Part shown: one piece after another, positions 1-32,470 of the stretch
Numbering within the stretch: the stretch's first letter is position 1
Layout: each line of letters starts with the position of its first letter
Virus record (IMG/VR): IMGVR_UViG_3300036820_000646
Coordinates: 1-52,214 of that record
DNA length: 52,214 nucleotides
Direction: 5' to 3' (one strand)
Source: a virus
Lineage: Duplodnaviria; Caudoviricetes
Translations under genes and position numbers: made by a program
Notes under the pieces: model-generated
What the model was told of the DNA's origin: nothing
The model's database searches: none
The model's input: only the letters and a program-made list of their open reading frames with translations

Positions 1-276
1 TTAGCTCGCTGCGCGCTCGGAGTCTCCTGGAGCGATAGGTACACCCGTTTCAATGAATTTCATCAAGTTTGCCTTCTTCACTCTCAGGCTCGAACCGATA
101 CGGAGGACCGGGACAGGGAAGTTGCCACGACTTTGGAGGTTCCACGCGGTGCTGCGGTGAATGCCCAGAAGGTCCGCTGCTTCGCCGAGGCTGATTGTCA
201 ATGGCTCAGCCTTTGGAGCGACATTGGACGACTCGAACTCGATTTCTGACTTGTTCTTGGTTGACTGCTTTGCCAC
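1..276 (-). CDS. AlpA/excisionase-like helix-turn-helix DNA-binding protein
   Basis: ISLGEAADLLGIHRSTAWNL...FPVPVLRIG..RV is a typical HTH_17/AlpA pattern; GTG start at 276 preceded by GGAG. Confidence 0.8.
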   Translation of the reverse strand: MAKQSTKNKSEIEFESSNVAPKAEPLTISLGEAADLLGIHRSTAWNLQSRGNFPVPVLRIGSSLRVKKANLMKFIETGVPIAPGDSERAAS

Positions 277-382
277 GGGTGCTCCGCCTTCTACTCCGGA
301 CGCTGGGTGCGACCTCAGGCGGCGACGTACCCCGATCCGAGAAAAGATGTCCCGCCGGTCTTCACCATGCGGCAAATCGGTC

Positions 383-1087
383 CTACGCCAGTCCGCGGGC
401 CCGCTGGGCGCCGACCGTGTTGGCCAGGGCCGCATCAGTGCCCATTTCGACGGCCAGCTCGATACCGACTAAGTATCTCTCTGTTTCAGCGACAGCTCCA
501 GCCAGGTCCTCGTGATCTCTCAGGGCGATCTCGTCGCGCTCGCGTTGTTCCTTGACGAACTTCGCTATCTCGTCCATCACCCGCTTGTTCGATCGACCTT
601 CGTCTGCTCCACTTGTCAGCATCATCTGACCCGAGTTGAGTCCCCACAGCGTCGATGAAGCCAAAGCCCACCCCTGGCGGCCGTCAACGTGAAACGTTCC
701 ACCGTCGTACTCGACAAGGACCGCGTTTGGCTCAAGCATGGCCACCGCGCTGCGGATGTCGACTTCCCCGCGGTCACGCCACGCGGCCGAGTCTTCGTCC
801 GAGAGAGCTGACAGGTTCGGGCGTCGCCCTTTGGCCCGCGCTCGACGTGTCAGTCGGTCATACTCGAAATTCCAGCCACCCTTGTAGAGCGGATCGGTGA
901 GCGCATACGACACCGTGTCATTTCCGTTGTCCACGATGTCGACGCGGTACACGATGCCATCGATCACTGCTCCGACCGTGCGACGTAGGTTGCCGGCGAT
1001 CTCGACTGTCGCCTCTGGATTCGACGACGGTGCGAATTGACCACCCGTGGATTGTCCCTTCGGTCGGCGGTTCGTGACGGCAGACAT
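383..1087 (-). CDS. Hypothetical protein with N-terminal GGQFA tag
   Basis: ORF with RBS (AGGAG); starts RRPKGQSTGGQFAPSSNPEATVEI; remainder unrecognised. Confidence 0.8.
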   Translation of the reverse strand: MSAVTNRRPKGQSTGGQFAPSSNPEATVEIAGNLRRTVGAVIDGIVYRVDIVDNGNDTVSYALTDPLYKGGWNFEYDRLTRRARAKGRRPNLSALSDEDSAAWRDRGEVDIRSAVAMLEPNAVLVEYDGGTFHVDGRQGWALASSTLWGLNSGQMMLTSGADEGRSNKRVMDEIAKFVKEQRERDEIALRDHEDLAGAVAETERYLVGIELAVEMGTDAALANTVGAQRARGLA

Positions 1088-1099
1088 TGGATCTCCTTC

Positions 1100-1570
1100 T
1101 TAAGCTGACTTGGCTTCGGGTGGCATGTGGACGATCTCGGCAACCATGCAGAACGAATCGAGGACTTCGGAATCAATGAGGCGGGGGAAACCGCGTCTGA
1201 CTTCTTCCTCTATCGCCTCAACCTTGGAGCGACCTTCCTCGCAGGCGTAATCGTTGCCACCGCCTTCACCACTGTTGGAGACGTCGATCCTGACGTCGCC
1301 CACGTTCAGGTATCCAGACCAAGCGATGCCTCGCAACGTCTCGATCTCTGATGTGATCTTCATAGACGAACGACGGAGAAGCTCAAGTCCCTCCTCGTTC
1401 GGGTCGTACCATCCGCGCTCGTCGAGGTAACTGTGGATGCGAGAGACCGCGACCTCCATTGTCAGTGGAGGCGCACGGAGTTCGCTTAGCTCGACGGTCG
1501 GTTCCGGGTTCGCGCTCGGCGCGAATTGCCCTCCTACATTCGTACCCTTGGGTTCGCGTTTGAAGGTCAT
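1100..1570 (-). CDS. Hypothetical protein with N-terminal GGQFA tag
   Basis: REPKGTNVGGQFAPSANPEPTVEL; start overlaps upstream stop (ATGA). Confidence 0.8.
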   Translation of the reverse strand: MTFKREPKGTNVGGQFAPSANPEPTVELSELRAPPLTMEVAVSRIHSYLDERGWYDPNEEGLELLRRSSMKITSEIETLRGIAWSGYLNVGDVRIDVSNSGEGGGNDYACEEGRSKVEAIEEEVRRGFPRLIDSEVLDSFCMVAEIVHMPPEAKSA

Positions 1571-1989
1571 AATTGCTCCCGTGCTGCGCCGAGCTGATCG
1601 GCGGCTTCTTTTAGATCACTTACCAGACCTAAGGCGATCGCTTCCCGCTCCGGGGTGTTGGCGCCAACGTGTCCGAGGTAATCGGCTTTCGTATTGAGCT
1701 CGTCTAGCCATTCGTAAAGATCGCCCGTGGCAGCCTCCTGCTCGGCGATCTCCCTTGAGTATCCGATGATCTCCCCCACTCGAGCAAAGTCGTTCCTGCT
1801 GCCTTGGCCCCCACGGATTCGCTCGACGATGGCGGCCGCGTTGCGCAGCGCCTCGCTGACGTTGTCGCGAGTGATGGCCCAAGGGGCAAAGTAGCCGACC
1901 TCGACGTCGACGGCTGCTTCTGGATTCGACGTTGTCGCGAACTGTCCACCGCCGATGGTGCCTTTGGGCTTACGGTTAGTGGTCATCAT
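1567..1989 (-). CDS. Hypothetical protein with N-terminal GGQFA tag
   Basis: RKPKGTIGGGQFATTSNPEAAVDV; translationally coupled to neighbours. Confidence 0.8.
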   Translation of the reverse strand: MMTTNRKPKGTIGGGQFATTSNPEAAVDVEVGYFAPWAITRDNVSEALRNAAAIVERIRGGQGSRNDFARVGEIIGYSREIAEQEAATGDLYEWLDELNTKADYLGHVGANTPEREAIALGLVSDLKEAADQLGAAREQL

Positions 1990-2909
1990 TCGCCATCAAC
2001 GATTCTGAATCGGATGTCGCCGATTTGGAACTCGCCGGCGTCTTTGTCGTACGTCAACTCCGACGCCCGTCCGAAGTCCATCCAAGAGTAAACGTCGCGA
2101 TCGGCTCCGGACTTGCGGGTACGCATCGCAAACGAACCCGTCTGCACTTTGGTGACTGGACGCTTCAGTCCGACCACTTCAGGCCAGCGAGGGTTCTGCA
2201 CAACCTCGATGACGGTGCCTACTTTGATCGTCCTCTTCAGGTCGGCCATCGTTCCCGTCTTGTGCAGCGCCGGCAGCGAAGGATCGATGACCGGCGCGTG
2301 GAACTCCTCCACCTTGGCTTGTCCGTAGTACCTCACGTCGAAGTAGTCGGTCATCACATCCGAACCGTCATGGTTGTACGTGTCGTGTATCGCCTGAATC
2401 GTTTCGCGGACTCGCGTGCCTTCTTCGCTCTCGTGCGCGGCGCCCGCACAGCGCCAGTCATGTTGACCGGGCTTGCAGCTCGAGGGGACCGTGCGTGCGC
2501 CAAAGTCCAACTCCCCCGTGCACCGACTGTCGTCGGCGGGAACTGTTGCTCCGGCCCAGTTGCTTACCTTTATGTCGATCGACGCGCCACCTGCGTACTT
2601 CTGAGTCGTCACACTGATGTCAGCGTCCTTGGGTAGGCCACCGTTCGCGACCGCCTGCTTGATGTCCTGGCGCATGAGTCCGGCGATCTCGGTGACGCCA
2701 AGATTCCTCGCGTCTTCGTATTTGGCCCCGTAGCGACGTTCGTATGGACGGCGCGGCCGCGTTTCTGGCTGACCAAGGACGAGCGGCGCGCTGTCGACGA
2801 TCACAATCGTTGGCTCGACGAAGTCCACTTGCGCTTCTGGGTTCTCAGACGGTGCGAACTGTCCTCCGACAGGCACGCCTCGGGGTTGGCGGTTTTGAGC
2901 GGTTGTCAT
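1986..2909 (-). CDS. GGQFA-tagged protein with LPD29-like (large polyvalent protein-associated) domain
   Basis: Tag RQPRGVPVGGQFAPSENPEAQVDF; then EIAGLMRQDIK...ISVTTQKYAGGASIDI...YNHDGSDVMTDYFDVRYY, resembling LPD29. Confidence 0.7.
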   Translation of the reverse strand: MTTAQNRQPRGVPVGGQFAPSENPEAQVDFVEPTIVIVDSAPLVLGQPETRPRRPYERRYGAKYEDARNLGVTEIAGLMRQDIKQAVANGGLPKDADISVTTQKYAGGASIDIKVSNWAGATVPADDSRCTGELDFGARTVPSSCKPGQHDWRCAGAAHESEEGTRVRETIQAIHDTYNHDGSDVMTDYFDVRYYGQAKVEEFHAPVIDPSLPALHKTGTMADLKRTIKVGTVIEVVQNPRWPEVVGLKRPVTKVQTGSFAMRTRKSGADRDVYSWMDFGRASELTYDKDAGEFQIGDIRFRIVDGE

Positions 2910-3568
2910 CGCGTCACCGTCGAGTCGTACTCATCGTTGAAAGGCTGCTTAGTGATGTAGTAACCGACCGCGTCTTCACGAATTCCGTTGACGAGTACTT
3001 CATCGCCAAGCTCATCGATCACCGAGGACCACACGTGGTCCGACGGCTGTGACTTGACGAACGCGAGGTCAGTGCCGGACGTCTCGAACGTGCCGCCGTA
3101 ACGCTCATCAAGTGAGTCGTCGGAACCACGGACGGGGTGAGGAATCGGCTCGTAGAGGTCCGCGAAGTCATCCCGGTTCATCTGGCGGTTGAACGACTCC
3201 TCCTCGTCGTACGGAGCGATCTCGTCAACCACCTCCATGAAGGATTCAGCCAGCGGTTCAAACATGCGGCTGTCGCGATCGGCTTCGGCGAGGAACCTGT
3301 CGGCGACCGCGCGCCACTGCTCGGGCGTGAGATCGCGATCACCGTCGTAGTAGCCACGGTTCCTGAACCAATAGAGAGCCGGCTCGTCGTCTGGCAGGTT
3401 CGCTAGCTGCGCTCGAAGCTCTCCGACCGTTGGCCCCTCATAACCCTCGTACGGATTTACCAACGCGCGGCCGAGATCGACGGTGGCTTCCGGGTTCGTC
3501 GACGCGGCGAACTGCCCACCTGCGTCGGCGCCTTTGGGCACGCGACTTTGTCCATTGAGATCTCCCAT
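2906..3568 (-). CDS. Hypothetical acidic protein with N-terminal GGQFA tag, first gene of five-gene tagged operon
   Basis: RVPKGADAGGQFAASTNPEATVDL; AAGGAG RBS. Confidence 0.8.
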   Translation of the reverse strand: MGDLNGQSRVPKGADAGGQFAASTNPEATVDLGRALVNPYEGYEGPTVGELRAQLANLPDDEPALYWFRNRGYYDGDRDLTPEQWRAVADRFLAEADRDSRMFEPLAESFMEVVDEIAPYDEEESFNRQMNRDDFADLYEPIPHPVRGSDDSLDERYGGTFETSGTDLAFVKSQPSDHVWSSVIDELGDEVLVNGIREDAVGYYITKQPFNDEYDSTVTR

Positions 3569-3577
3569 GTCTCCTTT

Positions 3578-3604
3578 GATGGGAGTTCTTCTCGCAATCG
3601 GCCA
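3578..3604 (-). promoter_or_regulatory. Bipartite motif TGGCCG-N11-AACTCCCATC, 9 nt upstream of ATG 3568 (copy 1)
   Basis: Identical boxes and spacing at 31566-31592 and 41360-41386. Confidence 0.8.
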
Positions 3605-3748
3605 CGTCTTTGAGTGTCCGTTGGAGGATCGTCTATCGGGACGAAAGGTGCGGGACGGTCCTTTGTGATGGCGCCTGGGTTTCGGGAGTCCCGTTTAGGC
3701 CGTCCGAATAAGTACTGTCTAAGGTGCCTTTAACGGTACGCTTTTCCC

Positions 3749-4360
3749 ATGAACGTACTGATTGGCTACGCGAGATGTTCGACCGACCAGCAAGACCTCA
3801 CTGTTCAGCGCCAAGCTCTTGAAGCATTGGGCGTCGAGAGCGGACGCATCTACTCCGACCACGGACTGACGGGTACCAACCGTGACCGGCCCGGACTTCG
3901 CGATGCACTGGCCGCGTGCCGAGAAGGCGACACGTTGGTCGTGACGAAACTGGACCGGCTCGCGCGTTCCGTCCCCGACGCACGCGACATTGTCGACGAG
4001 CTGACCAAGCGAGGGGTCAAACTGCAACTGGCCGGTTCGGTCCACGACCCTAATGATCCGATCGGCAAGCTCCTCTTCAACGTGCTCGCGATGGTGGCCG
4101 AGTTTGAGTCCGACCTCATTCGATCCCGAACTCGAGAAGGCATGAAACTTGCCAAGCAGCGCGGACGTCTCAAGGGTAAGCAACCGAAACTAAGTGACCT
4201 TCAAGTCGCGCACCTCGGGGAACTGCACGATGCGGGCGATCACACCGTCAGCGAGTTGATGGATCTCTTCGGGGTTGGGCGAGGAACGATCTACCGTTCC
4301 CTCGAGCGGCGCGTTACGGAGCCCCGTGCTGGTCGAGCCACTGCGCCAACGCCTCGGTGA
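3749..4360 (+). CDS. Serine recombinase (resolvase/invertase) with C-terminal HTH
   Basis: IGYARCST, DRPGL, LVVTKLDRLARS, AEFESDLIRSRTREG, C-terminal FGVGRGTIYR. Confidence 0.95.
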   Translation: MNVLIGYARCSTDQQDLTVQRQALEALGVESGRIYSDHGLTGTNRDRPGLRDALAACREGDTLVVTKLDRLARSVPDARDIVDELTKRGVKLQLAGSVHDPNDPIGKLLFNVLAMVAEFESDLIRSRTREGMKLAKQRGRLKGKQPKLSDLQVAHLGELHDAGDHTVSELMDLFGVGRGTIYRSLERRVTEPRAGRATAPTPR

Positions 4361-4586
4361 CGATCGTCGAGCGAGCAATGCCATTTGACTCTGAGAACGC
4401 GTGCATTCGATACAGCACATTCCGGTCGACGTAGCCCGTCCATCGCTGCATTCTCTGTTCAAATGACCCGCGGCGTTTCGCGATATTGGCGCCCTCAACG
4501 GGGGCCCGCAACGGTGCTTCGGCGCGCGTCGGTTCGGCTCGAGTTACTTCAGCCGCGGCCTTCAGTCGATCCTCAAGTCTGCTCAT
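4314..4586 (-). CDS. Small partition adaptor (ribbon-helix-helix-like, ParG/ParB type Ib)
   Basis: 90 aa directly downstream of parA; C-terminal RWTGYVDRNVLYRMHAFSESNGIARSTIVTEALAQWL fits an RHH pattern. Confidence 0.7.
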   Translation of the reverse strand: MSRLEDRLKAAAEVTRAEPTRAEAPLRAPVEGANIAKRRGSFEQRMQRWTGYVDRNVLYRMHAFSESNGIARSTIVTEALAQWLDQHGAP

Positions 4587-5157
4587 CGGTCTCCTTCCAA
4601 CGGGCGACGATCTCGTCAGCTAATGGACGAAACATCACGAGAACTGGCGTCATCGCGAAGGACTGAACGACGCGTTCCGACAGTGGCAAGACGGTCGCTG
4701 AAACGGGATGACCAGCATCGGCGCAGAGCTGTTGAATTGTCTTTCCCGCGGACGTTGAGCGGCGAACTCGTGAGGGGACGACGAGGTACAACTGGCTCGC
4801 CGGCAAGAGAGCAAGCGTGTCGGGGAGCTGGTCCGCTTCGAGCGGAGAGGGTGCCATTGGAATGAGAACAAGATCGGAAACGGCCGCTGCCGCGGTGATC
4901 GCCTCGGCGTCGTTTGGTGGTGTATCGAGCACCAACCAGTCGTAAGAATCGGCGAGCGATGGAACCGCTTGAACGATGGTCGACGCCGAGCCGGCGGCAA
5001 CATCGAAGAGGTCGAGGTCCTCCATCCAGTGGAGCGCCGAACCGTTGTCGTCGAGGTCGATGAGCCCGACTCGATCCGGCAAGCACGCCGCGAGACCGAC
5101 CGCCAGAGTAGTCTTTCCGACCCCACCTTTACGGTTACAAACCGCGATCGTCCTCAT
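4573..5157 (-). CDS. parA: ParA family partition ATPase (short, type Ib)
   Basis: Deviant Walker A NRKGGVGKTT, LIDLD, YDWLVLDTPP; GGAGGT RBS before ATG 5157. Confidence 0.92.
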   Translation of the reverse strand: MRTIAVCNRKGGVGKTTLAVGLAACLPDRVGLIDLDDNGSALHWMEDLDLFDVAAGSASTIVQAVPSLADSYDWLVLDTPPNDAEAITAAAAVSDLVLIPMAPSPLEADQLPDTLALLPASQLYLVVPSRVRRSTSAGKTIQQLCADAGHPVSATVLPLSERVVQSFAMTPVLVMFRPLADEIVARWKETDEQT

Positions 5158-5180
5158 TGGACCTCCAATCCTATACCGAA

Positions 5181-5306
5181 ACGTGTACGTATACGTCCAC
5201 GTGTACGTGAGGTGCGAAATCTGTGTCCAACTCTCCACTGTCGATTGAGACTGTTGGGTGTGGCGAGGTCATGTAGAGGTGTACGTACACGTAGACGACT
5301 ACGTGT
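5181..5306. repeat. 6-bp-periodic ACGT array upstream of parA, putative parS/operator
   Basis: ACGT at 5181, 5187, 5193, 5199, 5205 and at 5283, 5289, (ACGA 5295), 5301. Confidence 0.7.
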
Positions 5307-5477
5307 GTCAATGCTGGTCAAAGGGCATATTCGAGCAAAAAACTGGGTTGAACTTTAGCCCCATTTTTCAGAGGCCATGTGTCGTCTGGCGTCCATTGAC
5401 GGTATGTGTTTTATTGCGACGAGCCAGCGGGCCTGGGCTCAAAGACACATATTTATGGGGCTCGCAGGGTCGTCGCC

Positions 5478-5873
5478 CTACCTTCGACTCGGTTGTCTCC
5501 CGATGATCTCGACTGGCGTTCCGGGTGGGAAGTAACCGCGTCGGCGTCGCTCCAATCGACGAGTGGCAAAGACACTCGGGATCTTCGAGCCCTTCGTGAG
5601 GTTGTGCCGAGCGCAGAGTGCAACGAAGTTTGACATGCTCGTAGCGCCGCCCTTGGAGTGGGGAAAGTGATGATCTCCGTGGGTCGGTGCGTTGGTACAG
5701 CGACGTCCGAAGATGTTGAAGTGTTCGCATTGATTCCCCGCGCGGAGGAACCCGCTCGTCCTCTCAGAGAGCGAGAAGATTCTCTTGGGATCGAGATGAG
5801 CTCCCTGTCCCCGGCGTGTCGCGAGCAAGGCCACCACTACTGCGGCAACGATCAAACAGAAGTCGTGGCTCAT
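5478..5873 (-). CDS. HNH endonuclease with hydrophobic N-terminus
   Basis: CEH...C...GDHHFPHSKGGATSMSNFVALCARHNLTKG is an HNH signature. Confidence 0.8.
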   Translation of the reverse strand: MSHDFCLIVAAVVVALLATRRGQGAHLDPKRIFSLSERTSGFLRAGNQCEHFNIFGRRCTNAPTHGDHHFPHSKGGATSMSNFVALCARHNLTKGSKIPSVFATRRLERRRRGYFPPGTPVEIIGRQPSRR

Positions 5874-5874
5874 G

Positions 5875-6543
5875 CTACGAAGTGCAACTTGGCGAAGCCG
5901 AATAGTTCACAAATGCCCCGCCCTGACTGTCGTAGTCCGTGGCCACATAGGTGCCTTTAGCGGCGACGAATGAGACCGTCGCTGTCTGGCCTGACGACGA
6001 GTAGTCGGTTGGGCCGTCCACCGTCAAGGAGTTAGATGCGGTCGGTCCGGTGCCGCTGACCGTGACACTCTGTCCGCCCGAGCACGTGAACGTCACGGAA
6101 TATGACGTTTGGGGAGCTGTAGTTGTGGTTGTCGGCGGAGGTCGACGACGAATCGTCGTTGTCGTAGTGGGTGGCCTCGTCGTCGTAGTCGTGGTCTCGA
6201 CGGGATGAGTCGTTGTCGTAGTGGGTGGCAGCGGCCTTGTCGTTGTAGTCGTCGGAGGAACCGCGTGATGGTGGGGTTTCGTGGTCGTGGTAGTGGGTGG
6301 CGGCTTGGTCGTGGTGGTGGTGGCTACCACCGTGGTAGTCGTTGTCGGTACCGTGTCTCTAGCCGCCGGAGCTTTGTGGGCGCCTGGCCCTAACGCGTAC
6401 CCCGCTGCAAGGATGACGGCCACGAGCGCGATTCCTACGATCGGTCCTCGTGCCCGGAGATACCACCGGAATGTTTGGCCCGGCGTGCGTAGCAACGACA
6501 CGTTGCTCTTCGAGTTGCCCAAACCCTTGTCGTCATCGCTCAC
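5875..6543 (-). CDS. Membrane-anchored Thr/Pro-rich surface protein
   Basis: TM segment IVGIALVAVILAAGYAL, repeated PTTTTT runs, small beta-rich C-terminal domain with two Cys. Confidence 0.75.
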   Translation of the reverse strand: MSDDDKGLGNSKSNVSLLRTPGQTFRWYLRARGPIVGIALVAVILAAGYALGPGAHKAPAARDTVPTTTTTVVATTTTTKPPPTTTTTKPHHHAVPPTTTTTRPLPPTTTTTHPVETTTTTTRPPTTTTTIRRRPPPTTTTTAPQTSYSVTFTCSGGQSVTVSGTGPTASNSLTVDGPTDYSSSGQTATVSFVAAKGTYVATDYDSQGGAFVNYSASPSCTS

Positions 6544-6578
6544 GGTCTGCTCCCGATGTTTGCGTTACAAGAAAAGGG

Positions 6579-6632
6579 TCTGCCGCCCGTACATCTCGCC
6601 AAGGAGGGTAGGAGAGAAATACGGGCGGCAGA
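6579..6632 (-). terminator. Hairpin downstream of ssb, likely intrinsic terminator
   Basis: 13-bp inverted repeat TCTGCCGCCCGTA/TACGGGCGGCAGA followed on minus strand by CCCTTTTCTT. Confidence 0.65.
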
Positions 6633-6650
6633 GTTCATGCGTGACAGCGA

Positions 6651-7091
6651 CTAGAAGTCGTCGTCGTCGTCCGCTACCGGCTTGGCCTTGGCCTTAGAGG
6701 CGGCGGCAGGCGCGTCGTCATCGACGTCACTGGCCTTGGCCTTGGTGACCTTGGTCACACTGGCAGTCGCCCAACGCAAGTCGGGACCAACGGCTGAGGC
6801 GGTGACGCTGACCATCGTGAGCGACTTCTCTTCGCCTTCGATTGTGACGTCCTTCGAGTAGGTGTTGAAACGACCGATCACAAGGACGCGCTGTCCCTTG
6901 CTCAGCGACTTCGCGACGTTCTCGGCGAGGGTGCCAAATGCGGTGACGTTGATGAAGTGCGACTTCTCGTCGTCACCTTGACCTTCGTTGACCGCGACGG
7001 TGAACGTGGCACGGACGGTGCCCTTGTCGCTCTTGGGCTCAACGAGATTCGGGTCCTTGGTCAGGTTCCCCACGAATGAAATGTTGTTCAT
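6651..7091 (-). CDS. ssb: Single-stranded DNA-binding protein
   Basis: GNLTKDP, AFGTLAENVAKSLSKGQRVLVIGR, VGPDLRWATA, acidic tail DDDDDF. Confidence 0.95.
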   Translation of the reverse strand: MNNISFVGNLTKDPNLVEPKSDKGTVRATFTVAVNEGQGDDEKSHFINVTAFGTLAENVAKSLSKGQRVLVIGRFNTYSKDVTIEGEEKSLTMVSVTASAVGPDLRWATASVTKVTKAKASDVDDDAPAAASKAKAKPVADDDDDF

Positions 7092-7166: not shown

Positions 7167-10100
7167 CTAAACCAGTGGCGGATTTCTTGGAATCCTGCGG
7201 AAACCACTGAATTCATGCACCTCGATGGTCGTTCGGGCCAGCGAGCGCGTTGGACGCGCCAGAGAGGTGCGCTGGGGCGTTGATGCCACGGAGGGTGCCG
7301 GCGTCGTAAGAAGAGAACGAGCCTCAAACTGAGGTTTCTCAGCGGCCGGGTAGTCGAAGCCATCGTCGTCGTATTCAGATGGGTCGATGAACTCGAGTTC
7401 GATCGCATCTACCGCGTCGTCGAGCGACGCAACGCTCTTCGCAGCGACAGCGAGACGTTCGTGGCGTGGCTTGTCGAAAAGAGTTGGCGCGTCTGGGGCC
7501 GTGTCGTCAACGACGGCGGTCTCGTCGTTGATAGGGAACGACCAGATCGAGTTGACCACGAGCTCTTTGACCGACACCTCTTCGGTGTCTGCACCTTCGT
7601 CAGTGTCGCGCTGGTATGGCGTCTTGGTCTTGACGATTCCGTCGATGCCGATGATGTCGCCGACCTTGGGCACCGTGCCACTACGCACGATCTTGTCGAG
7701 TGTGGTGTTCCATACGACGCAGTCGATGGTCGACTTTGTGCCAGAGAGCCGCATCTTGGCGAAGCTCGTCTTGCGCTTCAAAACCTCCCATGACGTGACC
7801 AGCCCGATCGTGCTCACGTTGCCCTCGTCTGGCAACCGATGTAGCGCAACGGGGACGTTGCGAGTCTGAGGCGATCGCCAAGTCTTGATCTGATCCTTGA
7901 ACACGCTGAGCGGATCGGCGGAGACGAGGATTCCGAGTCGGTCGCGCTCGCGGACGGAATACTCGAGAACGCCCCACTCCGATTTCGAGACGGTGGCGCC
8001 TGGGTTCTTGCGAAGGGTTTCGAGTGCGTCAAACATCCCCTTGCGAGTACCAAAGGCGTCGAACGCCCCCGACTCGATGAGCGCTCGTAGGACAGTGATG
8101 GAGACGCGGCGAGTCCCATTTGTGACCCTGACGCGGCTTGCGAAGTCGGCCAGAGACTTGAATGGGCCGTGAGCGGTGCGTTCCGCCACGATCTCGGCGG
8201 CGACAGTTCCCACGTCGCGAATCTTCGACAAACCGAAGAGCACGACTCCGTCGTCACCGACCGTTGGGTAGGCATCGCTCCGGTTGACGTCCGGGTGACG
8301 CAGCTCGACTCCCTCTTCTCTCAGCGAGGCGAGAAAGGCGAGGCGCTTCTCCTGGTTATCTGAGATCGACAGCCAACCGGCGGCGTACTCAGTCGGGTAG
8401 TTCGCCTTCAGCCATGCAGTGATGAACGACAGGCGCGCGTAACCAACCGAGTGTGACTTGTTGAACGAGTACTCCCCGGCCGACTTCATTGCCTCCCAGA
8501 GGTTCTCCGCGGTGCGCGCGGCGAAGGCCAACTTGGGCTCGCCTGCCATGTCGACGTTGGCTTGAGCACCTTTGATGAACAGTTCCCCCGAGCGGTTCAT
8601 CTTCTCGCGGTCCTTCTTGCCGATGGCCCTCAGGAGATTGTCACGCTCGGGCGGATTGAAGCCTGCGACCAACTCCGCGATGCGAAGCAACTGTTCTTGG
8701 TAGACCATGACGGCCAACGTCTCGTCCATGACGCTCGCGAGGATCTCCACTTCGGCGGGGATCTTCGTGAAGATGTCGTAACTGATCTTTTCGAGACCCG
8801 CTCTGCGGTTCGCGTACATGTCGTGCATACCGATGCCGAGCGGCCCTGGTCGATACAGCGCGATGAGGACGGCCAATTCGTCGACCGACGCCGGACGCAG
8901 TCGCCTAGCGAGGTCTTGTGTCCCTTGTCCTTCAATTTGGAAGATGCCCTCGGTGCGCCCCGCGCCGACCATCGTCCACGCCTTCTTCGCTTCGTCCGTG
9001 CCCGTGTCTGGAATGGTGTCGACGTCCAGATCGATGCCGTGGCGTCGCTTGATCTCGCGCACGGCCGCCTCCACGACGTCGAGGTTGGCCAGACCGAGGA
9101 TGTCCATCTTCAAGAATCCGAGATCCTCCAGCGCCTCGCCGTCAAACTCGCTCACCCACCCGCCCGTGCCACCGGACTTCTCAGTACGCCGGTCACTCCG
9201 CAGCGGGATGAGGCCAACGAGCTCTTCATCGCCGATCACCACACCGCACGGGTGAATTGACTCGGTATTGACGACGCCCTCAAAGCGCTTGGCGATCTCG
9301 ATCACTGGCTCGCTGCCAGACTCGGCGGCCAGCTCACGAAAGCCTGCACCCGGAGCCCAGCCGGGGTCACTCAGAGCTTTGATGCTTGCGGTCTTGCCGT
9401 CTCCCAGCGTCGGTACCTGGTTAGCGAGGGCTACGCCCACCTGACTGGCGCCCAATACCTTGCCGGCGACTCGTAGAGAGTTCTTCGATAGTGAGTACCC
9501 CAGTGTGCCAATGAGACCGACCGAGTCCTTACCCCAGCGCTCAATGAGATAGTTGACGACCTCTTGGCGACGACCCTGCTCGAAGTCGGTGTCGATGTCG
9601 GGCATCTTGTTGCGCGTCGGGTTCAAGAAGCGCTCGAAAAGTAGACCGTGTGCCAACGGGTCGACGGCGATGATGCCCATGCAGAAGGAGACGCACGAGC
9701 CGGCCGCTGATCCACGCCCTGGTCCCACACGGATGCCTTGGGCTTTCGCCCAGTCGATCATGTCGGCGACGATGAGAAAGTAGTCAGAGAGTCCAGCGTT
9801 GGAGATGATGTCCAGTTCGTAGCGGAGGCGTTCCTTTACGACGCCGGGCAGTGGCGACGAGTATCGACGTATAGCCCCCGCTTTGACTTTCTCATGGAGC
9901 AATTCACTGGCCGAGCGCTCGTTGGTGGGATCGAACGTCGGGATGCGCAACCCGTGCTTTGGAAACATGGAGTACCCGCTGGCTCGCTCCGCGATGAGGA
10001 GAGTGTTGTCACAGGCGTCCTCGAATCCAGGCTGGTCGTCGAAGATGGCACGCATCTCTTGAGCGCTACGAAGATGGAAGCCGCTTCCGGTGAACCGCCA

Positions 10101-10871
10101 GCGCTTCGGGTCATCGAGTGTCTTGCCCGATGCCCCACACAGCCACGCGTCGTGGGCGTGTGAGTCCTCTGCACTGGTGAAGTGAGAGTCGTTCGTCGCG
10201 ACAACGCGCAGATCGTGACGCTTCGCAATATCCAAAAGGTCGGCGTTCAAACTGTCCTCGATCGCAATCCCGTGCGACATCACTTCAATAAAGAAGTTGT
10301 CCTTCCCGAATATCTCGAGGAGATCGCGCGCGGCCGCGTTGGCACCGTCCGTGTCCCCCAGCGCCAGTCGACTCTTGATCGCACCTCCGAGACACCCCGA
10401 CAGAGCAATCAGTCCCTCGGAGTTCTCGGCGAGTAGCGACAGATCCATGCGCGGCCTCGACCAAAAGGCGTCACCTTCGTGTGAGAGCGCGGACAGTCGC
10501 ATCAAGTTCTTGAGGCCGACCTCGTTCTCCGCCAACAACGTGAGGTGGGTGTACTTCGACTCCCCCGGTTCAGAGGTATCGGAAGCATTGCTGTCGTCGA
10601 TCGACTTGCGGCCAATCTCGCGACGGAGTCGTGCGTTGGACTCCCTGTCTTCAATGGCCATGTACGCCTCAATGCCGCCGATGAGAGACACCCCTCGTTT
10701 CGCTGCGGACTGGTGCGCCACGTAGAGACCGCTCAAATTGCCGTGGTCGGTAATGGCGAGCGCGCTCTGTCCGTCCGCGACCACCGCGTCAAAGAGGTCG
10801 TCAGGACGCGCGATCGAGTCGCGCACGCTGTGGGACGAGTGCGTGTGTAAGTGGACAAAGCCCTGAGCCAT
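7167..10871 (-). CDS. dnaE: DNA polymerase III alpha subunit
   Basis: PHP domain FVHLHTHS, AITDHG, ATNDSH; GPGRGSAAGS; MPDIDTDF; YSFNKSH; no intein. Confidence 0.97.
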   Translation of the reverse strand: MAQGFVHLHTHSSHSVRDSIARPDDLFDAVVADGQSALAITDHGNLSGLYVAHQSAAKRGVSLIGGIEAYMAIEDRESNARLRREIGRKSIDDSNASDTSEPGESKYTHLTLLAENEVGLKNLMRLSALSHEGDAFWSRPRMDLSLLAENSEGLIALSGCLGGAIKSRLALGDTDGANAAARDLLEIFGKDNFFIEVMSHGIAIEDSLNADLLDIAKRHDLRVVATNDSHFTSAEDSHAHDAWLCGASGKTLDDPKRWRFTGSGFHLRSAQEMRAIFDDQPGFEDACDNTLLIAERASGYSMFPKHGLRIPTFDPTNERSASELLHEKVKAGAIRRYSSPLPGVVKERLRYELDIISNAGLSDYFLIVADMIDWAKAQGIRVGPGRGSAAGSCVSFCMGIIAVDPLAHGLLFERFLNPTRNKMPDIDTDFEQGRRQEVVNYLIERWGKDSVGLIGTLGYSLSKNSLRVAGKVLGASQVGVALANQVPTLGDGKTASIKALSDPGWAPGAGFRELAAESGSEPVIEIAKRFEGVVNTESIHPCGVVIGDEELVGLIPLRSDRRTEKSGGTGGWVSEFDGEALEDLGFLKMDILGLANLDVVEAAVREIKRRHGIDLDVDTIPDTGTDEAKKAWTMVGAGRTEGIFQIEGQGTQDLARRLRPASVDELAVLIALYRPGPLGIGMHDMYANRRAGLEKISYDIFTKIPAEVEILASVMDETLAVMVYQEQLLRIAELVAGFNPPERDNLLRAIGKKDREKMNRSGELFIKGAQANVDMAGEPKLAFAARTAENLWEAMKSAGEYSFNKSHSVGYARLSFITAWLKANYPTEYAAGWLSISDNQEKRLAFLASLREEGVELRHPDVNRSDAYPTVGDDGVVLFGLSKIRDVGTVAAEIVAERTAHGPFKSLADFASRVRVTNGTRRVSITVLRALIESGAFDAFGTRKGMFDALETLRKNPGATVSKSEWGVLEYSVRERDRLGILVSADPLSVFKDQIKTWRSPQTRNVPVALHRLPDEGNVSTIGLVTSWEVLKRKTSFAKMRLSGTKSTIDCVVWNTTLDKIVRSGTVPKVGDIIGIDGIVKTKTPYQRDTDEGADTEEVSVKELVVNSIWSFPINDETAVVDDTAPDAPTLFDKPRHERLAVAAKSVASLDDAVDAIELEFIDPSEYDDDGFDYPAAEKPQFEARSLLTTPAPSVASTPQRTSLARPTRSLARTTIEVHEFSGFRRIPRNPPLV

Positions 10872-11023
10872 CAAACGCCTTATGTGCCGAGGCGACGATC
10901 AGTACTGGCCTAGCCCTCACTCCTTTGTTTATCGAGGTTTTTGAATCTGATGAGACGGCCTCTACCCGAATCAGCATCCGCACTATGGGCGGAGGATTGA
11001 GCGAGCGAAAGTAGATTCGTCCC

Positions 11024-12715
11024 ATGAGGAGGCTAAGGCTGGGAGTGTTGCTGGCTGGCCTCGTCGTCGCAGCAGTCGCGTTCATACCATCCGCCGCGGG
11101 GGCAGCGTCCGTCACTTTTGGAGTTCCCGGCCTCGAGCTTTGCGGCTCGCTCCCGCAATATCAGTGTGACCTCGGGCCAGTTCGCGAACATTTCCCGGAC
11201 TACGGCAACGTCTGCTCCGACGACGACTGTTACTTCGTCTCCGCTGCGGACTGGGAGAAGGTTGCCGCCGGCGTTACCCCAACTCTCACGACGCTGGACC
11301 TTGACTACAAGGCCGCAGGGCAAACCTTCGCGGGAGGTCTCTCCGCACCGGACCTCTGGGCTTACTGGAAGACGTCAGGCATCGACGGCTTCTACCTCTC
11401 CAGCGAGGCGACAGTAAGCAAGAACTCATCGGCCATCGAAAACGCAGTGAAGGCGCACCGCGCGCTCATCGTTCAGGACGTCGCCACCAATTCATCGTTT
11501 ATGGGGACAACCAAGGTAAGGGCCGGCACAGCGATAATGATCGTCGACGGCTACACGCCCAAGGGACCGCTTGTGGTCTACCAAGCCAAGACAATCCAAA
11601 TGACGTGGCCGCAGTGGAACGCTCAGGTTCGATCAGTGTGGGAGGTGGTCGTCTCGACGACTGCGCCGCAAGGCACTACAACAACGCCGCCAACGTCGAC
11701 GACAAACCCGACCGCCACGCTCGCGCTTAGCTCGAACAACCTCACTTCGGCGGGCGGCGCCGTGACCCTGACGTACTCATCACAAAGTGCAACGACATGC
11801 ACGCTTACCTCATCGCCGGCGATTTGGACGACGGCAACCGAGACAGTCGCTTGCAACGGGACCTACGAAGACACTGTCGCGCCAACAACCACCGCGCAGG
11901 AGTGGACCTTCACGTTTACGGCAAACAACGCAGCCGATCAGTCGGCGACGGTGACCCAAACGCTGGTTGAGTCCGCACCGGCTTCAACAACACCGCAGTT
12001 TGATAATCCTTCACCGAACTGGTCCGGTTACGTCGTTCCGTCCAGTAGCGCGTTGGTTACCGACGTCAGTGGTGATTGGACGGTGCCAATTTTGAACTGC
12101 TCGGATACGCCTACCGGAGACTCATCGGCATGGGTAGGGATAGGCGGCCAGCAATGGAACTCCACGTCATCGTCGGGGGTACTCCTTCAAACGGGCACCG
12201 AGTCCGATTGCGTCAACGGAGTGCAGGAGAACGACGGGTGGTGGGAAGAGTATCCGGCCAATCCGAATCACGAGGAGATATTCAACGAGTTTCCAGTGTC
12301 CCCCGGAAACGAGATCGAGGCGGCCGTCTACGAACGAAACGATGGCTCTTGGGAAACTGCCGTCAGTGACCTCACAACAGGGCTCTCGGGCTACATGATT
12401 ACCGGCGAAGCCTGGGGCGTATCCGAAACGGGAGCCCCCTCGTTCACAGATCAGGGAAGCACCACTGGGCTGAGTTATTCCGGCGGTTACACCGCAGAAT
12501 GGATCGTTGAGGACACCGGCGTTGCGTCCACGCCAGGTTCCTACTATCCATTCGCGAACTTCGGCTCCATTACTTTCAGCGATATGAGATCCAGCTTTTC
12601 TTCTTGGTACTTAACGCCCGATGAAGAATGGGGCATTGTGCAAAGTGGCGTGACGCTCGCGGCGCCAACGAGCACATCAACGGATGGATTCACCGACACA
12701 TATACGGGACCGTAA
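11024..12715 (+). CDS. Secreted protein with C-terminal G1 (eqolisin-type) glutamic peptidase domain
   Basis: Signal peptide; SPNWSGY, WTVP, SAWVGIGG, LLQTGT, WWEEYP, TAEWIVED (Q/E dyad). Confidence 0.85.
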   Translation: MRRLRLGVLLAGLVVAAVAFIPSAAGAASVTFGVPGLELCGSLPQYQCDLGPVREHFPDYGNVCSDDDCYFVSAADWEKVAAGVTPTLTTLDLDYKAAGQTFAGGLSAPDLWAYWKTSGIDGFYLSSEATVSKNSSAIENAVKAHRALIVQDVATNSSFMGTTKVRAGTAIMIVDGYTPKGPLVVYQAKTIQMTWPQWNAQVRSVWEVVVSTTAPQGTTTTPPTSTTNPTATLALSSNNLTSAGGAVTLTYSSQSATTCTLTSSPAIWTTATETVACNGTYEDTVAPTTTAQEWTFTFTANNAADQSATVTQTLVESAPASTTPQFDNPSPNWSGYVVPSSSALVTDVSGDWTVPILNCSDTPTGDSSAWVGIGGQQWNSTSSSGVLLQTGTESDCVNGVQENDGWWEEYPANPNHEEIFNEFPVSPGNEIEAAVYERNDGSWETAVSDLTTGLSGYMITGEAWGVSETGAPSFTDQGSTTGLSYSGGYTAEWIVEDTGVASTPGSYYPFANFGSITFSDMRSSFSSWYLTPDEEWGIVQSGVTLAAPTSTSTDGFTDTYTGP

Positions 12716-12726: not shown

Positions 12727-15237
12727 CTACAGGGTCGAGGCTCGTTCGGCCTGGCGTCGGCGAATGTCTTCAGGGTTCGTCGAAGCCAAGCGCAAGAAGT
12801 GATCCGGCAGTCTGATCTCGACGGGCACCGCGCGCCCTGCCAAGTCGACATAGATGCCGACAGCACCGCGCAATACCTCTCCGCTCCTGGCGTCACGTAA
12901 CGCCCGCATCGAGTTCCAGTTCGGAGCTACGCCGTCCTCGGCGCCTGCCGTGCCGAGAGTGGCTTTGGCGGTGATCCGGCCCATCCGCTCCGACGTCGCC
13001 TCCAACTCAAATAACGCGCAGGCGGCGGCCGCCTCGTTTGGGTCCTGGATCGGCAAGATGAGACCGCGCGAGATGTATCCGGCGAGATCCGCATCGAGAG
13101 CGTCTGTAATGCGCTGGGTGAAGAGCATTGGGAGCACTTGCTGGCTTCGGGCGAGGCGACCGAGACGCTCAATCTCGCTGCGACCAGCCCCCAGCATTAC
13201 CCACGCCTCGTCGAGCATGAGGACTCCTGAGCGCATTGCGAGCGCCGAGGCGGACCCGAAGACCATCATGCGCACCAGTGCCAGCGCAATGCGCTGATTC
13301 AAGTTGACTTCCTCTTGCCCAGGAGCTGGTAGGTCGAGGTACGCGTCACCGACCTTTATATAGGTGATTCCCTGAGCCGCCCTCAGGCCCTGGCCACCGT
13401 TAGTACTTCCCACACACGCGCGGAACATCGGAGATGACGTCGCGAGGTCCATCACCGCCTCAACCATCGGCTTAGGAGCGATGCCGTCCTTAAGAGCGAT
13501 CTGTAGAGCCACGCCAATGCAGTCAGCGCCACGCTCGACGCCATACGCGATCGCCCGCTGCACCGGCATCTCGTAGTTCATCGCGCTGAGCCCCCACGGG
13601 TTAATGGTCATCAGCATTGACGCTGCCAACTCCGCTCCGGAGTTTTGAGACTTCGAGAAGCGCAATGGATCGAAGATCCCGTCAGCCGTAAGCAGATCGT
13701 CCAGACTCGATACGCGCCCTCCCGCCGCCTCAACGACTGCGGAGTGATCCGATCCCAGCTTCGGGTCGATGATGATGATCGGCGTCCGTTCGCCATAGAC
13801 CGACGTGATGCGCGACAACTGGTCGGCCAGGTACAACATGGTCGCCGTCTTTCCCGATCCGGACTGACCAGCGCACACGAAGAAGGGCAGGGAGTCTTCG
13901 TCGGCCGCAGCCGTCGGCGAGACATACGCGGGTTGTCGGTCATTCTCGGTGAAGCCCAGCATCGCTCCGTCACGGTCCCCCACCGCCGAGAGACCGGAGA
14001 GCCCAGAGGCTCCGATCGCGACCGTGGGCAGGTCGTTTAGATACGGATTGGCGCGTATCGGCGACGCGAGCCAAGTTTCGGCCAATGCCTGATTCTGACG
14101 AGAGACCATCGTCGAGAGCGACAATGCCGATCCCGGCGCGAACTCACTCAGGTCGTAGCCATTCAGTCCGACTTGACCCGAGACAGCGATCAGGGTTGAG
14201 CAATCCATCAGCGTTGCGGGCCCGCCAGTCGCGTAGAAGCGCTCCAGATCGTCGATTTCTGCCAGGAGTTCCTCCTGCTCGGCGCGAGCCATCTTGTTCT
14301 GCTGGTATCGCTCGTTGATGTCGTCGGTGAACTTCTTCTTGCCCCGACGTAGTTCGCTGCGCGTCACCGTCGACGGCTCGAGGCGCGCCCTCATCGAGAT
14401 GCACACTGCACCTGAGTTCACGAGGTTGGCCGCCCATTGAGCGGTCACCGACGTGGCGTCGGGGTACCCAAAGTCGAACGAGCGAACGGTTGCGAAAGTG
14501 ATCGTGTGATGGTTCGCCAGATTCCACGATGCGCACGCGTCGTCGCCGTCGCGCCCCACGAGGCGCGCAGCCGACTGCATTGACGACGTCGAGGAGAAGA
14601 TGTGAACGTGGTCGTCGTGCACCAACATCGGCGTGTCGGGCCCGCGCCCTTGGTTCCACCACGCGTTGGCCAAGGCGAAGTCCTGGTCGGTCATGGACAA
14701 GAGACCGGACCTCGCCATCACCGCACTCATCGCTGCGAAGTCCTGGTCGAAGTCCTCCAAAGGGACTGTGCCCGTCGTTAGGGTCTCCACGACCGAGTCG
14801 AAGGCGCTCCGTATCCCGCCCTCGCCAACTTGGTCCTTCAGTCGGACACCAACGAGCAATACGCGCCGCAGCACTTGGGTGTTCGAGAAACCGCTGGCCA
14901 AGTAGCTCGCGAGCTGAGAATCGGGCGGAGGCAAAAAACTCGCCGGCACGTTCACGAGGAGCAGATGGACCTCACGGTATGAGCCCTTTGACATCTTGCG
15001 ACGGTTGACGCGAACGTGAGTCGTCGCAGCGATCTCTTCCAGAACGAGACGCAGGGGCTCGCCGGCCGCCAGCGCCTGCTCGGGTGAACGAGCGTCCGTC
15101 ACCGGTGAGAGTGGCACTTTGGCAAAGAGCCACACCGAGTTGTCAGTACCGAGTACTCGCCCACCGGATTTCCGACCGAGCACGGCTGTTGGCCACCACG
15201 GATCGGTGTCGTCGCGTTTCTTGTCGAATAGTCCCAT
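12727..15237 (-). CDS. VirB4-like conjugation ATPase
   Basis: 836 aa; Walker A AGQSGSGKT, IIIIDPK, Walker B LMLDEAW, GRLARSQ; context of membrane tra-like genes. Confidence 0.8.
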   Translation of the reverse strand: MGLFDKKRDDTDPWWPTAVLGRKSGGRVLGTDNSVWLFAKVPLSPVTDARSPEQALAAGEPLRLVLEEIAATTHVRVNRRKMSKGSYREVHLLLVNVPASFLPPPDSQLASYLASGFSNTQVLRRVLLVGVRLKDQVGEGGIRSAFDSVVETLTTGTVPLEDFDQDFAAMSAVMARSGLLSMTDQDFALANAWWNQGRGPDTPMLVHDDHVHIFSSTSSMQSAARLVGRDGDDACASWNLANHHTITFATVRSFDFGYPDATSVTAQWAANLVNSGAVCISMRARLEPSTVTRSELRRGKKKFTDDINERYQQNKMARAEQEELLAEIDDLERFYATGGPATLMDCSTLIAVSGQVGLNGYDLSEFAPGSALSLSTMVSRQNQALAETWLASPIRANPYLNDLPTVAIGASGLSGLSAVGDRDGAMLGFTENDRQPAYVSPTAAADEDSLPFFVCAGQSGSGKTATMLYLADQLSRITSVYGERTPIIIIDPKLGSDHSAVVEAAGGRVSSLDDLLTADGIFDPLRFSKSQNSGAELAASMLMTINPWGLSAMNYEMPVQRAIAYGVERGADCIGVALQIALKDGIAPKPMVEAVMDLATSSPMFRACVGSTNGGQGLRAAQGITYIKVGDAYLDLPAPGQEEVNLNQRIALALVRMMVFGSASALAMRSGVLMLDEAWVMLGAGRSEIERLGRLARSQQVLPMLFTQRITDALDADLAGYISRGLILPIQDPNEAAAACALFELEATSERMGRITAKATLGTAGAEDGVAPNWNSMRALRDARSGEVLRGAVGIYVDLAGRAVPVEIRLPDHFLRLASTNPEDIRRRQAERASTL

Positions 15238-15273
15238 CGTTCCTCTATGTCTCTGAGCGGGCTTCAGTGGCGA

Positions 15274-17242: not shown

Positions 17243-17283
17243 GCCCTTCACCATGCGGCCACTTTTCCGCTGAGTCGGCTCGC

Positions 17284-32463: not shown

Positions 32464-32470
32464 CGCACGA

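Follow-up and report, generated by a model that had tools for sequence, protein, structure and literature searches.

Two groups of genes described from mobile elements come closest to a five-gene array that lies at positions 383-3568 of a 52,214-nucleotide stretch of DNA (IMG/VR record IMGVR_UViG_3300036820_000646, positions 1 to 52,214; hereafter the window, meaning that whole stretch). In the searchable part of the description of polyvalent proteins, escort proteins travel with conjugative DNA, the ArdC-N domain is proposed as a delivery 'header', and solo polyvalent-protein domains occur beside type IV secretion system (T4SS) genes; the terms 'linker' and 'N-terminal motif' do not occur in that part of the text (Iyer et al., 2017; PMC5512222). 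Anti-defence islands, in the portion of their description considered here, bring together anti-restriction and methylase genes with those for SSB and toxin-antitoxin systems (Samuel et al., 2024; PMC11541004). The array of the window consists of five consecutive minus-strand open reading frames (ORFs), P1 to P5, whose products have an N-terminal peptide in common (the tag) and are unrelated in the remainder of the protein (the body). Placing one N-terminal address on varied cargo is familiar from the capsid-targeting sequence of phage T4 internal proteins, encapsulin cargo-loading peptides, and the N-terminal marker or trafficking domains MIX and LXG of polymorphic effectors. The general idea is thus already known from other secretion and packaging systems, and the tag peptide itself is apparently undescribed: neither the tag, nor the scale of its use, nor use of its DNA as a recombination handle was found in the searchable literature, although the supplementary files of PMC5512222 may hold such a motif. 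We find that the tag is a portable peptide carried by many unrelated soluble proteins in one family of actinobacterial mobile elements.

Results

Five genes with unrelated bodies share one N-terminal peptide

An earlier note on this DNA, made from its letters alone, had described P1-P5 as a translationally coupled array of tagged genes lying between a helix-turn-helix gene and a resolvase/par/ssb region, and our analysis confirmed this arrangement. At three junctions (P1/P2, P2/P3 and P3/P4) stop and start codons overlap by 4 nt in the sequence ATGA, and the 12-nt gap between P4 and P5 holds GAAGGAG at positions 1093-1099; AAGGAG is also present ahead of P1, at 3571-3576. A consensus scan for promoters and terminators returned nothing above shuffled controls, and the sigma-70 consensus scan of positions 1-4400 found 0 sites where 1.0 was expected. 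Each array protein consists of the tag and a single body of 110-280 residues, and past the tag the five bodies gave no mutual alignment.

The tag is about 25 residues long, lies within residues ~5-31 of all five proteins and has the consensus R-x-P-[KR]-G-x3-GGQFA-x-[ST]-x-NPE-x-x-V-[DE]. Two backbone proteins elsewhere in the window, P6 and P7, are also strongly tagged, and in the first 36 residues of these seven proteins 12 columns are invariant (R, P, G, G, G, Q, F, A, N, P, E and V). When the DNA of the seven tags was compared pairwise, identity at codon positions 1, 2 and 3 was 0.74, 0.80 and 0.42, the invariant Gly, Ala and Pro residues were encoded by differing synonymous codons, and the longest exact run common to any two tags was 14 nt. 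The codon-position identities and the shortness of the longest repeat therefore argue that the tag of the window is not a DNA site or an RNA element, and an explanation at either of these levels was ruled out for the window on these grounds. Judged from the codon pattern, selection is acting on the tag peptide and not on its DNA.

AlphaFold models of P4 and P5, built from small family alignments, reached a mean pLDDT (predicted local distance difference test score) of 81.4 and 82.6, respectively. The bodies scored above 80 and were predicted with confidence to have different architectures, a compact alpha/beta body in P4 and a beta sheet with a helical bundle in P5. Over the first 30 residues the scores were low in both proteins (pLDDT <50 in residues 1-30 of P5; block means of 45-51 in P4), and the tag is therefore predicted to be a flexible leader. 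A motif that is strongly conserved within a disordered segment would have to be read by a conserved partner. Versions of the tag differ by element, with NPE in the window and H-x-E in Arthrobacter, which suggests a partner that either the element encodes or the host lineage alone possesses, and would fit a co-evolving reader.

We next considered what the bodies could be. No hydrophobic segments were found in the tagged proteins of the window, and the five array proteins are acidic; the P1 body is soluble and very acidic, with a net charge of -28. In BLAST clusters of trimmed bodies each of the five falls in a recurrent family, that of P1 having 10 members among the tagged representatives. No Pfam match was obtained for any of the five bodies even at E<=10, and scans with Pfam, NCBIfam and PHROGs gave nothing usable except two PHROG matches of P2; the small body of P3 matched no family. 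The earlier note had drawn a link to LPD domains, for which there was no direct Pfam support in any of the five, and LPD29 had no match in the window at E<=1. An indirect link stood for P2, whose body reaches LPD29 only by way of its homologue P0167, which carries a precomputed LPD29 match. The central domain of P2, distantly related to LPD29 and to phrog_10415 (matched at 6e-12), is followed by a beta-rich C-terminal part, and there is a weak match (E 0.013) to phrog_1926, a PHROG of 1410 positions whose description reads 'released from the phage upon host infection'. Full-length relatives of P2 are tagged, and shorter relatives (P0162-P0172) begin at the central domain and lack the tag.

Structural comparison, which the earlier note had recommended for each body, gave no convincing relatives for those modelled: Foldseek searches of the P4 and P5 models against the PDB returned nothing at E<=0.001, and in a VIA-wide fold search the best Z scores, 7.6 for P5 (helical part only) and 4.7 for P4, were both within the chance range. 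PDB profile searches with the P1, P4 and P5 families found no match below E 0.1. In the ESM Atlas, P5 and P1 reached scores of only 0.75-0.81, some of them to clusters labelled 'LPD-containing', and we treat these as leads only.

The tag is carried by many unrelated proteins

A profile of the 7 window tags, searched against 1.84 billion representative proteins, matched 512 protein clusters at E<=1e-3 and 15 at E<=1e-10. Window proteins or their near-identical cluster representatives were retrieved at E 1e-14 to 1e-11, which in a collection of this size is far beyond chance. Among the best 150 of the 512 matches the median length was 190 aa, and 146 had the GGQF core within the first 30 residues; the exceptions were P0095, P0123, P0139 and P0130, the last of these a TPR protein without the GGQF core and probably a false match. 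BLAST clustering of 142 trimmed bodies, the window's seven included, gave 62 clusters with 45 singletons, and a Pfam scan of 114 tagged representatives left ~100 without a family. The known bodies that do carry the tag are diverse, comprising ArdcN with MPTase-PolyVal (P0056), ArdcN with Peptidase_M78 (P0140), DUF2958 (n = 4), hexapeptide transferases (Hexapep), DUF7007, HTH_3 and an SSB-domain protein (P0049).

Large plasmids of Micrococcaceae carry the tag many times. Using one 36-residue tag as a tblastn query, we found five Micrococcaceae plasmids of 375-440 kb with matches in 14 to at least 40 places each, the 427-kb plasmid of Pseudarthrobacter chlorophenolicus A6 having at least 40. The 400-kb plasmid of Arthrobacter sp. 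zg-Y1110 (NZ_CP104273.1; hereafter the Arthrobacter plasmid) has 34 tagged ORFs by a hidden Markov model of the tag, against 476 annotated features. Twelve tagged genes stand in tandem beside its parA, their annotated starts coinciding with the tag, and its tagged set includes Fic, a PolyA_pol/CCA-type nucleotidyltransferase with HD, DUF7007 and a homologue of P7. Phage records gave no match to the tag by tblastn and IMG/VR gave none by pattern scan; a pattern scan of a genome collection, which was narrow, returned only 4 loci.

Part of the tag was also found in larger proteins. P0118 (627 aa) is built of three modules, each headed by HPR-x-P-x-G-x3-GGQFAPKG, and in its relatives P0154-P0157 the sequence FDE[SA]KHPR-x-x-KG-x3-GGQFAPKG is repeated at module borders. 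In 886 actinophage records, genes named 'capsid maturation protease' match residues 23-255 of P0156. The motif is absent from gp84 of Microbacterium phage Pumpernickel, the best phage match of P0156, and P0118 had no match in phage records. By these comparisons multi-module, phage-head-type proteins known from metagenomes alone have the first half of the tag in common with the tagged proteins, and only the form found in plasmids and integrative and conjugative elements has the second half (NPE..V[DE]L; H-x-E in Arthrobacter).

Array content differs between related elements

Over its whole length the window is collinear with a chromosomal region in a metagenome-assembled genome (MAG) of Acidimicrobiaceae, with backbone identities of 50-79% (HerA-like 79%, resolvase 79%, SSB 77%, VirB4-like 74%, DnaE 72%). 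The slot between the resolvase and the excisionase-like gene (xis) holds 5 tagged genes in the window and 11 in the MAG element. P5 is the only array body common to the two (43%), and is the last gene in both arrays; P1-P4 match the MAG element over the tag alone. A second, closely similar MAG contig (L012) differs from that of the MAG element (L011) in the first few array genes. This syntenic slot bears out the picture, drawn in the earlier note, of a variable and expandable array in which a tag is joined to different bodies.

The closest relative, L015 (~90% DNA identity), has the same five array genes in the same order, with its P3 homologue broken by a 1.68-kb insertion (positions 7697-9378 of that locus) that carries an opposite-strand 454-aa transposase and represents an insertion sequence (IS). 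Across elements array content is not invariant, so the products are not subunits of one fixed complex, the outcome against which the earlier note had set its own proposal; the interruption of P3 and the retention of one body out of five in the MAG slot both speak to this point.

DNA contigs from three other soil/peat studies covered all or 29/30 bins of positions 1-5300 with differences at the level of single nucleotides. In one metatranscriptome run short contigs fell in 15/30 bins, and two matched exactly, inside P4 and where P5 borders xis; since DNA may be carried over into an RNA library, these contigs are not evidence of transcription. Just downstream of P5, at ~301-363, the match ended in contigs of two studies (X3 record 18 and X5), which continued into unlike sequence; the array's distal border is therefore not the same in all samples. 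A methylase occupies the distal border position in the MAG element.

The window and 38 fetched loci together contained 122 tagged genes, usually in same-strand arrays of 2-11, with arrays of 2-12 tagged genes outside the window. Out of 70 adjacent tagged pairs, 29 overlapped by 4 nt, 9 by 1 nt and 8 were spaced by 0-20 nt (46/70 tight), the counts of genes and pairs being inflated by partial redundancy among L011/L012, L036/L037 and L026/L030/L032. Composition varied by locus, with some neighbourhoods recurring, such as the order hexapeptide transferase, DUF7007, one other gene and an ArdC-like gene. Two loci repeat the layout of the window and the MAG element, with an orphan methylase adjoining the array: at L023 we observed ssb, whiB, parA, nine tagged genes and a methylase, and at L040 eight tagged genes with a methylase beside them. 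At four loci (L011, L023, L024 and L040) ArdC-like genes occur within the arrays, with N6_N4 methylases adjacent and HipA close by, the methylase of L011 adjoining the array on the opposite strand. The suggestion in the earlier note that the array carries anti-defence cargo is linked to it only indirectly, by these ArdC-like genes and orphan methylases in or beside homologous arrays; no known function was found for the five bodies of the window.

Shuffling of members by recombination at the tag-coding sequence, as the earlier note had also proposed, was supported in relatives but not among the tags of the window, given how little exact DNA these share. At L023 a DUF7007 gene and an ArdC-like gene with unrelated bodies share an exact run of 81 nt over the ribosome-binding site (RBS), the ATG and the first 22 codons, which shows that recombination does take place at the tag. 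Shorter shared 5' segments were found between tagged genes at L040, and P1 and the metagenomic protein P0007 are identical at 29/34 of their first residues and unrelated afterwards. Three loci (L030, L032 and L034) carry six-gene tagged arrays of paralogous short-repeat proteins, and the tag DNA is 90-95% identical across the genes of these arrays, above the identity of the bodies. Tandem duplication of tagged genes clearly occurs, and the RBS-plus-tag sequence that genes have in common appears to serve also as a recombination handle through which arrays exchange members. Two tagged proteins considered apart from the arrays of short-repeat proteins, P0067 and P0088, gave MORN_2 matches.

The surrounding element

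Features of the window are listed in Table 1. The genes of transfer type on the contig are those for a VirB4/TrbE-like AAA_10 ATPase and a TrbL/VirB6-like membrane protein (CD3337/EF1877 type); the contig also encodes a MoxR-like ATPase, an intein-bearing HerA/FtsK-like ATPase and SNF2 and DinG-like helicases, and ends on the right in an integrase fragment. Much of this backbone recurs on the Arthrobacter plasmid (VirB4-like 52%, SSB 52%, HNH 52%, MoxR 45%, P6 40%, DinG-like 38%, DnaE 37%, SNF2 34%, P7 29%, VirB6-like 28%). A P6 homologue is present in the Acidimicrobiaceae element as well (62%), and the P7 homologue of the plasmid has a weak Sigma70_r2 match.

No phage structural family was found in the 32+18 ORFs scanned with Pfam and PHROGs, and no capsid, portal or terminase gene was detected. 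The window is probably a conjugative element misfiled as viral, and its host probably belongs to Acidimicrobiia. Megablast of the first 12 kb of the window against plasmids gave no match. In the MAG an N6/N4 methylase on the opposite strand comes next after the array, then the excisionase-like gene, a tyrosine integrase and, belonging to the chromosome, an aldehyde dehydrogenase; from this gene order the element appears to be integrative, with the array at its xis/int end. The likeness to a plasmid leading region, which the earlier note had drawn from the ssb/par neighbourhood, is by association only, and no oriT or relaxase was found.

Table 1. Features of the window discussed in the text, with their positions and strand.
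Feature	Positions	Strand	Description
P1	2906-3568	-	220 aa, array gene 1; tag residues 9-31 (DNA 3476-3544)
P2	1986-2909	-	307 aa; tag residues 7-29 (DNA 2823-2891)
P3	1567-1989	-	140 aa; tag residues 6-28 (DNA 1906-1974)
P4	1100-1570	-	156 aa; tag residues 5-27 (DNA 1490-1558)
P5	383-1087	-	234 aa, last array gene; tag residues 7-29 (DNA 1001-1069)
P6	30489-31556	-	355 aa, strongly tagged backbone protein (six-frame motif scan)
P7	40331-41350	-	339 aa, strongly tagged backbone protein; tag residues 18-40
Weakly tagged protein	34575-35432	-	23.9 bits with the tag profile; in an operon with the VirB6-like membrane protein
Excisionase-like HTH_17 gene	1-435	-	Downstream of the array
Serine resolvase (Resolvase/HTH_7)	3749-4360	+	Divergent from the array; conserved upstream border of the variable slot
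Upstream backbone	4314-7091	-	Ribbon-helix-helix (RHH) gene, ParA, HNH, Pro/Thr-rich protein, SSB
DnaE-type polymerase	7167-10874		Beyond SSB
Pro/Thr-rich protein	5875-6543	-	222 aa, mostly Thr/Pro runs (TTTTT-x-PP repeats) behind a probable membrane segment; between HNH and SSB
Peptidase_A4 protein	11024-12715	+	563 aa, eqolisin-type
MoxR-like/VirB4-like operon	12727-18420	-	MoxR-like AAA_5 ATPase, 194-aa protein, 346-aa protein, VirB4-like ATPase
1262-aa protein	21023-24811	-	No Pfam, PHROG or NCBIfam match
HerA/FtsK-like ATPase	26623-29406	-	LAGLIDADG-type intein at ~27934-28950
Variable cargo block	31627-34571		DUF3800 protein, zinc-ribbon protein, HTH_Tnp_1 protein
DinG/YoaA-like helicase	43297-47010	-	LAGLIDADG-type intein
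Restriction-modification pair	49702-51372	+	BglII-like restriction endonuclease, MT-A70/HTH_58 methyltransferase

Several further features of the backbone were apparent. The operon with the MoxR-like and VirB4-like genes is conserved in the MAG element, and on the Arthrobacter plasmid the MoxR-like gene adjoins the tagged P6 homologue; the MoxR-like ATPase could be a third ATPase of the transfer machine. Two backbone genes bear inteins, as does the DnaE of the related MAG element. The intein of the HerA/FtsK-like ATPase is missing in L036 and L037, the intein-free homologue at L037:12151-13920 being a 589-aa P-loop ATPase with two C-terminal winged-helix repeats. Only the C-terminal 70 residues of the Pro/Thr-rich protein, and only the first 280 residues of the 1262-aa protein, are conserved in the MAG element; the gene of the latter is internally repetitive at the DNA level, with several overlapping blastn hits between 21645 and 25510. 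The Peptidase_A4 protein has a 65% identical counterpart in the MAG element and none on the Arthrobacter plasmid, and to our knowledge this family is not expected on a bacterial mobile element. The variable cargo block is replaced by ~480 nt in L036 and L037 and has no counterpart in the MAG element, from which the restriction endonuclease and methyltransferase near the right end of the window are both absent as well.

Discussion

A possible role for the tag

We propose that the tag is a handle for the recruitment or export of proteins that accompany transferred DNA, an explanation to which we give a little less than an even chance of being correct. The five genes form one operon-like, translationally coupled array in a hypervariable slot that extends from the resolvase to the excisionase/integrase end, and in each product the tag, a disordered short linear motif, is joined through a variable linker to an autonomous body. 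The array proteins would correspond to single modules of the polyvalent proteins known from conjugative elements and phages, and the array gains and loses members by tandem duplication and by recombination, partly at the RBS-plus-tag DNA. The tag would serve as a common handle read by a machine of the element or of the host lineage, most likely the transfer apparatus, such that tagged proteins would be drawn to it, and perhaps leave the cell together with the DNA, and would act early in a new host. Among these would be ArdC-like anti-restriction proteins, SSB, Fic, the CCA-adding enzyme and unknowns such as P1-P5. That the known clients are of kinds that act on or beside incoming DNA or on the new host, and that a T4SS-like machine is encoded with them, makes recruitment to this machine the most likely possibility.

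A narrower form of the proposal, in which the tag would be the N-terminal export code of an atypical actinobacterial conjugation machine and the tagged proteins would be injected with the DNA, we consider doubtful. It is a similarly tentative suggestion that this machine would be made up of the VirB4-like, VirB6-like, MoxR-like and HerA/FtsK-like proteins, with no recognisable relaxase or VirD4.

Several observations weigh against recruitment and export. The record is classed in IMG/VR as a provirus of ~50% completeness. Neither relaxases (PF03432, PF08751) nor a VirD4-type coupling protein (PF02534) were found in the window or on the Arthrobacter plasmid, no oriT was identified in the window, and MOB-suite typed the tag-rich plasmids as non-mobilizable, with one mobilizable; with no canonical relaxase or coupling protein found, transfer is inferred from the VirB4-like and VirB6-like genes. 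The five bodies have no known family, no sequence relative in the PDB and, for the modelled P4 and P5, no fold match, and a role of P1-P5 in establishment or anti-defence is by association only. No receptor of the tag was identified, and among the VirB4-like, MoxR-like and HerA/FtsK-like proteins, SSB and ParA no single candidate was sufficiently supported. The HerA/FtsK-like ATPase of the window had no tblastn match at 1e-5 on the tag-rich Arthrobacter plasmid, and so is unlikely to be a universal reader. The T4SS protein signals that we know of are C-terminal or internal. Lastly, the tagged backbone proteins (P6, P7 and the weakly tagged protein) lie in transfer or DNA-processing operons and fit recruitment as well as they fit export.

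Other explanations of a shared leader were weighed against these data. The tag could be a processing or turnover signal, either a leader cut by a peptidase or a degron, which would put its bearers on a common schedule of activation or removal. Such a signal would suit the conserved acidic/hydrophobic end of the tag (NPE-x-x-V-[DE]-L) ahead of a variable linker, the position of the core motif exactly at the module borders of proteins with a capsid-maturation-protease-like first domain, and the metallopeptidase domains that the ArdC-like tagged proteins themselves bear; polyvalent proteins, in the part of their description considered here, are likewise predicted to be cut into modules (PMC5512222). 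Against this, no peptidase family is common to all tag-rich elements, Peptidase A4 being present in the window and the MAG element and not on the Arthrobacter plasmid, and the motif at module borders lacks the NPE..V[DE]L half. What removal of a leader from the extreme N-terminus of a soluble protein would serve is also not evident without a compartment to enter, and we regard this explanation as improbable. Still somewhat less probable, in our judgement, is that the tag docks its bearers on a DNA hub of the element (SSB-coated DNA, the DnaE replisome or ParA) with no transfer of protein. Clamp and SSB hubs do use one short disordered motif on many clients, the arrays stand beside dnaE-ssb-parA in the window, the MAG element, L023 and the Arthrobacter plasmid, and SSB (52%), DnaE (37%) and HNH (52%) are among the best-conserved proteins between the window and that plasmid. 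However, an SSB-domain protein (P0049) is itself tagged, the Fic protein, CCA-adding enzyme, hexapeptide transferases and sigma-like protein have no evident replisome business, and the tag does not resemble the clamp-binding consensus as we know it.

Two other accounts of the array can be set aside with more assurance. That P1-P5 are diverged paralogues of one gene, and the tag a slowly evolving N-terminus without a function of its own, seems very unlikely: true-paralogue arrays with near-identical tags do exist in some relatives (L030, L032, L034), but the bodies of P1-P5 do not align, the architectures predicted for P4 and P5 differ, and the tag is found on unrelated known folds (ArdC-N, SSB, Fic, hexapeptide transferases), while the P2 body also occurs without it. 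The codon pattern further indicates purifying selection on a disordered peptide whose synonymous sites are close to saturated. Equally remote is the idea that the array encodes the subunits of one multiprotein complex with the tag as an assembly element. The tight translational coupling through three ATGA overlaps is typical of genes for complex subunits, but the syntenic slot of the MAG element keeps 1/5 bodies among 11 genes, composition varies by locus, and an IS splits P3 in the relative with 90% identity, so that the comparison between elements largely refuted it.

If the tag is an address label, as we propose, a simple sequence rule would find dozens of unknown, co-deployed proteins of actinobacterial mobile elements, in a phylum with many inhabitants of soil and peat and many giant plasmids, the transfer of these plasmids being poorly understood. 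The tagged set includes ArdC-like proteins, SSB, Fic and a CCA-adding enzyme, which makes its ~60 unknown body families, those of P1-P5 included, good candidates for new anti-defence or host-takeover functions. Were export also true, 8 genes here and ~7% of the genes of a 400-kb Micrococcaceae plasmid would encode proteins injected with the DNA, and the full transferred-protein set of a mobile element would be readable from sequence. Actinobacterial phages and conjugative elements would then share one 'travel with the DNA' address, given the modules fused to capsid proteases.

Comparison with known systems

A variable, expandable, co-directional array of unrelated small genes beside a recombinase recalls the integron. 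In contrast to an integron, the recombinase here is a serine resolvase and not an IntI-type tyrosine integrase, and the shared sequence is coding (RBS plus tag) and selected as a peptide. The 4-nt gene overlaps leave no room for attC sites, and an integron-type reading was ruled out by these overlaps and the 12-nt gap together with the Resolvase/HTH_7 neighbour.

With the N-terminal delivery tags of T4, encapsulin, MIX and LXG cargo, the locus shares one constant address on many unrelated cargos, often in variable arrays. It differs from them in having no sequence resemblance and in lacking interleaved immunity-type genes, its own genes overlapping; no capsid, encapsulin shell, type VI secretion system or type VII secretion system genes were seen in the window, and delivery is putative here. 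Unlike for the capsid-targeted internal proteins of phages, no phage structural genes were found with the array, and its sole link to them is the core motif in metagenomic proteins that resemble capsid maturation proteases.

Like leading-region islands, the array is a co-directional cluster near ssb, the SSB gene lying ~3 kb upstream, and its relatives have ArdC-like genes, orphan methylases and a HipA toxin-antitoxin gene nearby. The likeness ends at an apparently integrative element in which no oriT was identified and the array occupies the xis/int end, at the opposite-strand methylase of L011, and at the five bodies, none of which is a known anti-defence gene. The islands are defined by position and gene content, and the portion of their description considered here mentions no shared peptide tag (PMC11541004).

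The polyvalent proteins offer the closest parallel. As with these, the array is found in a mobile-element context with T4SS-like genes that is conserved in related elements, homologous arrays hold ArdC-N with a zincin MPTase or M78 domain and an LPD29-like domain as single modules, and the core of the tag also heads the internal modules of multi-module proteins. Polyvalent proteins have 2-15 domains in one polypeptide, whereas the window proteins have the tag and one body, only proteins of the P0118 and P0155-P0157 type being multi-module, and for the majority of bodies, P1 and P3-P5 among them, neither an LPD nor any other Pfam family was matched. Every module of the array is a gene of its own with a conserved 25-residue leader, an arrangement that would show polyvalent modules being kept as separate genes and yet handled as a set.

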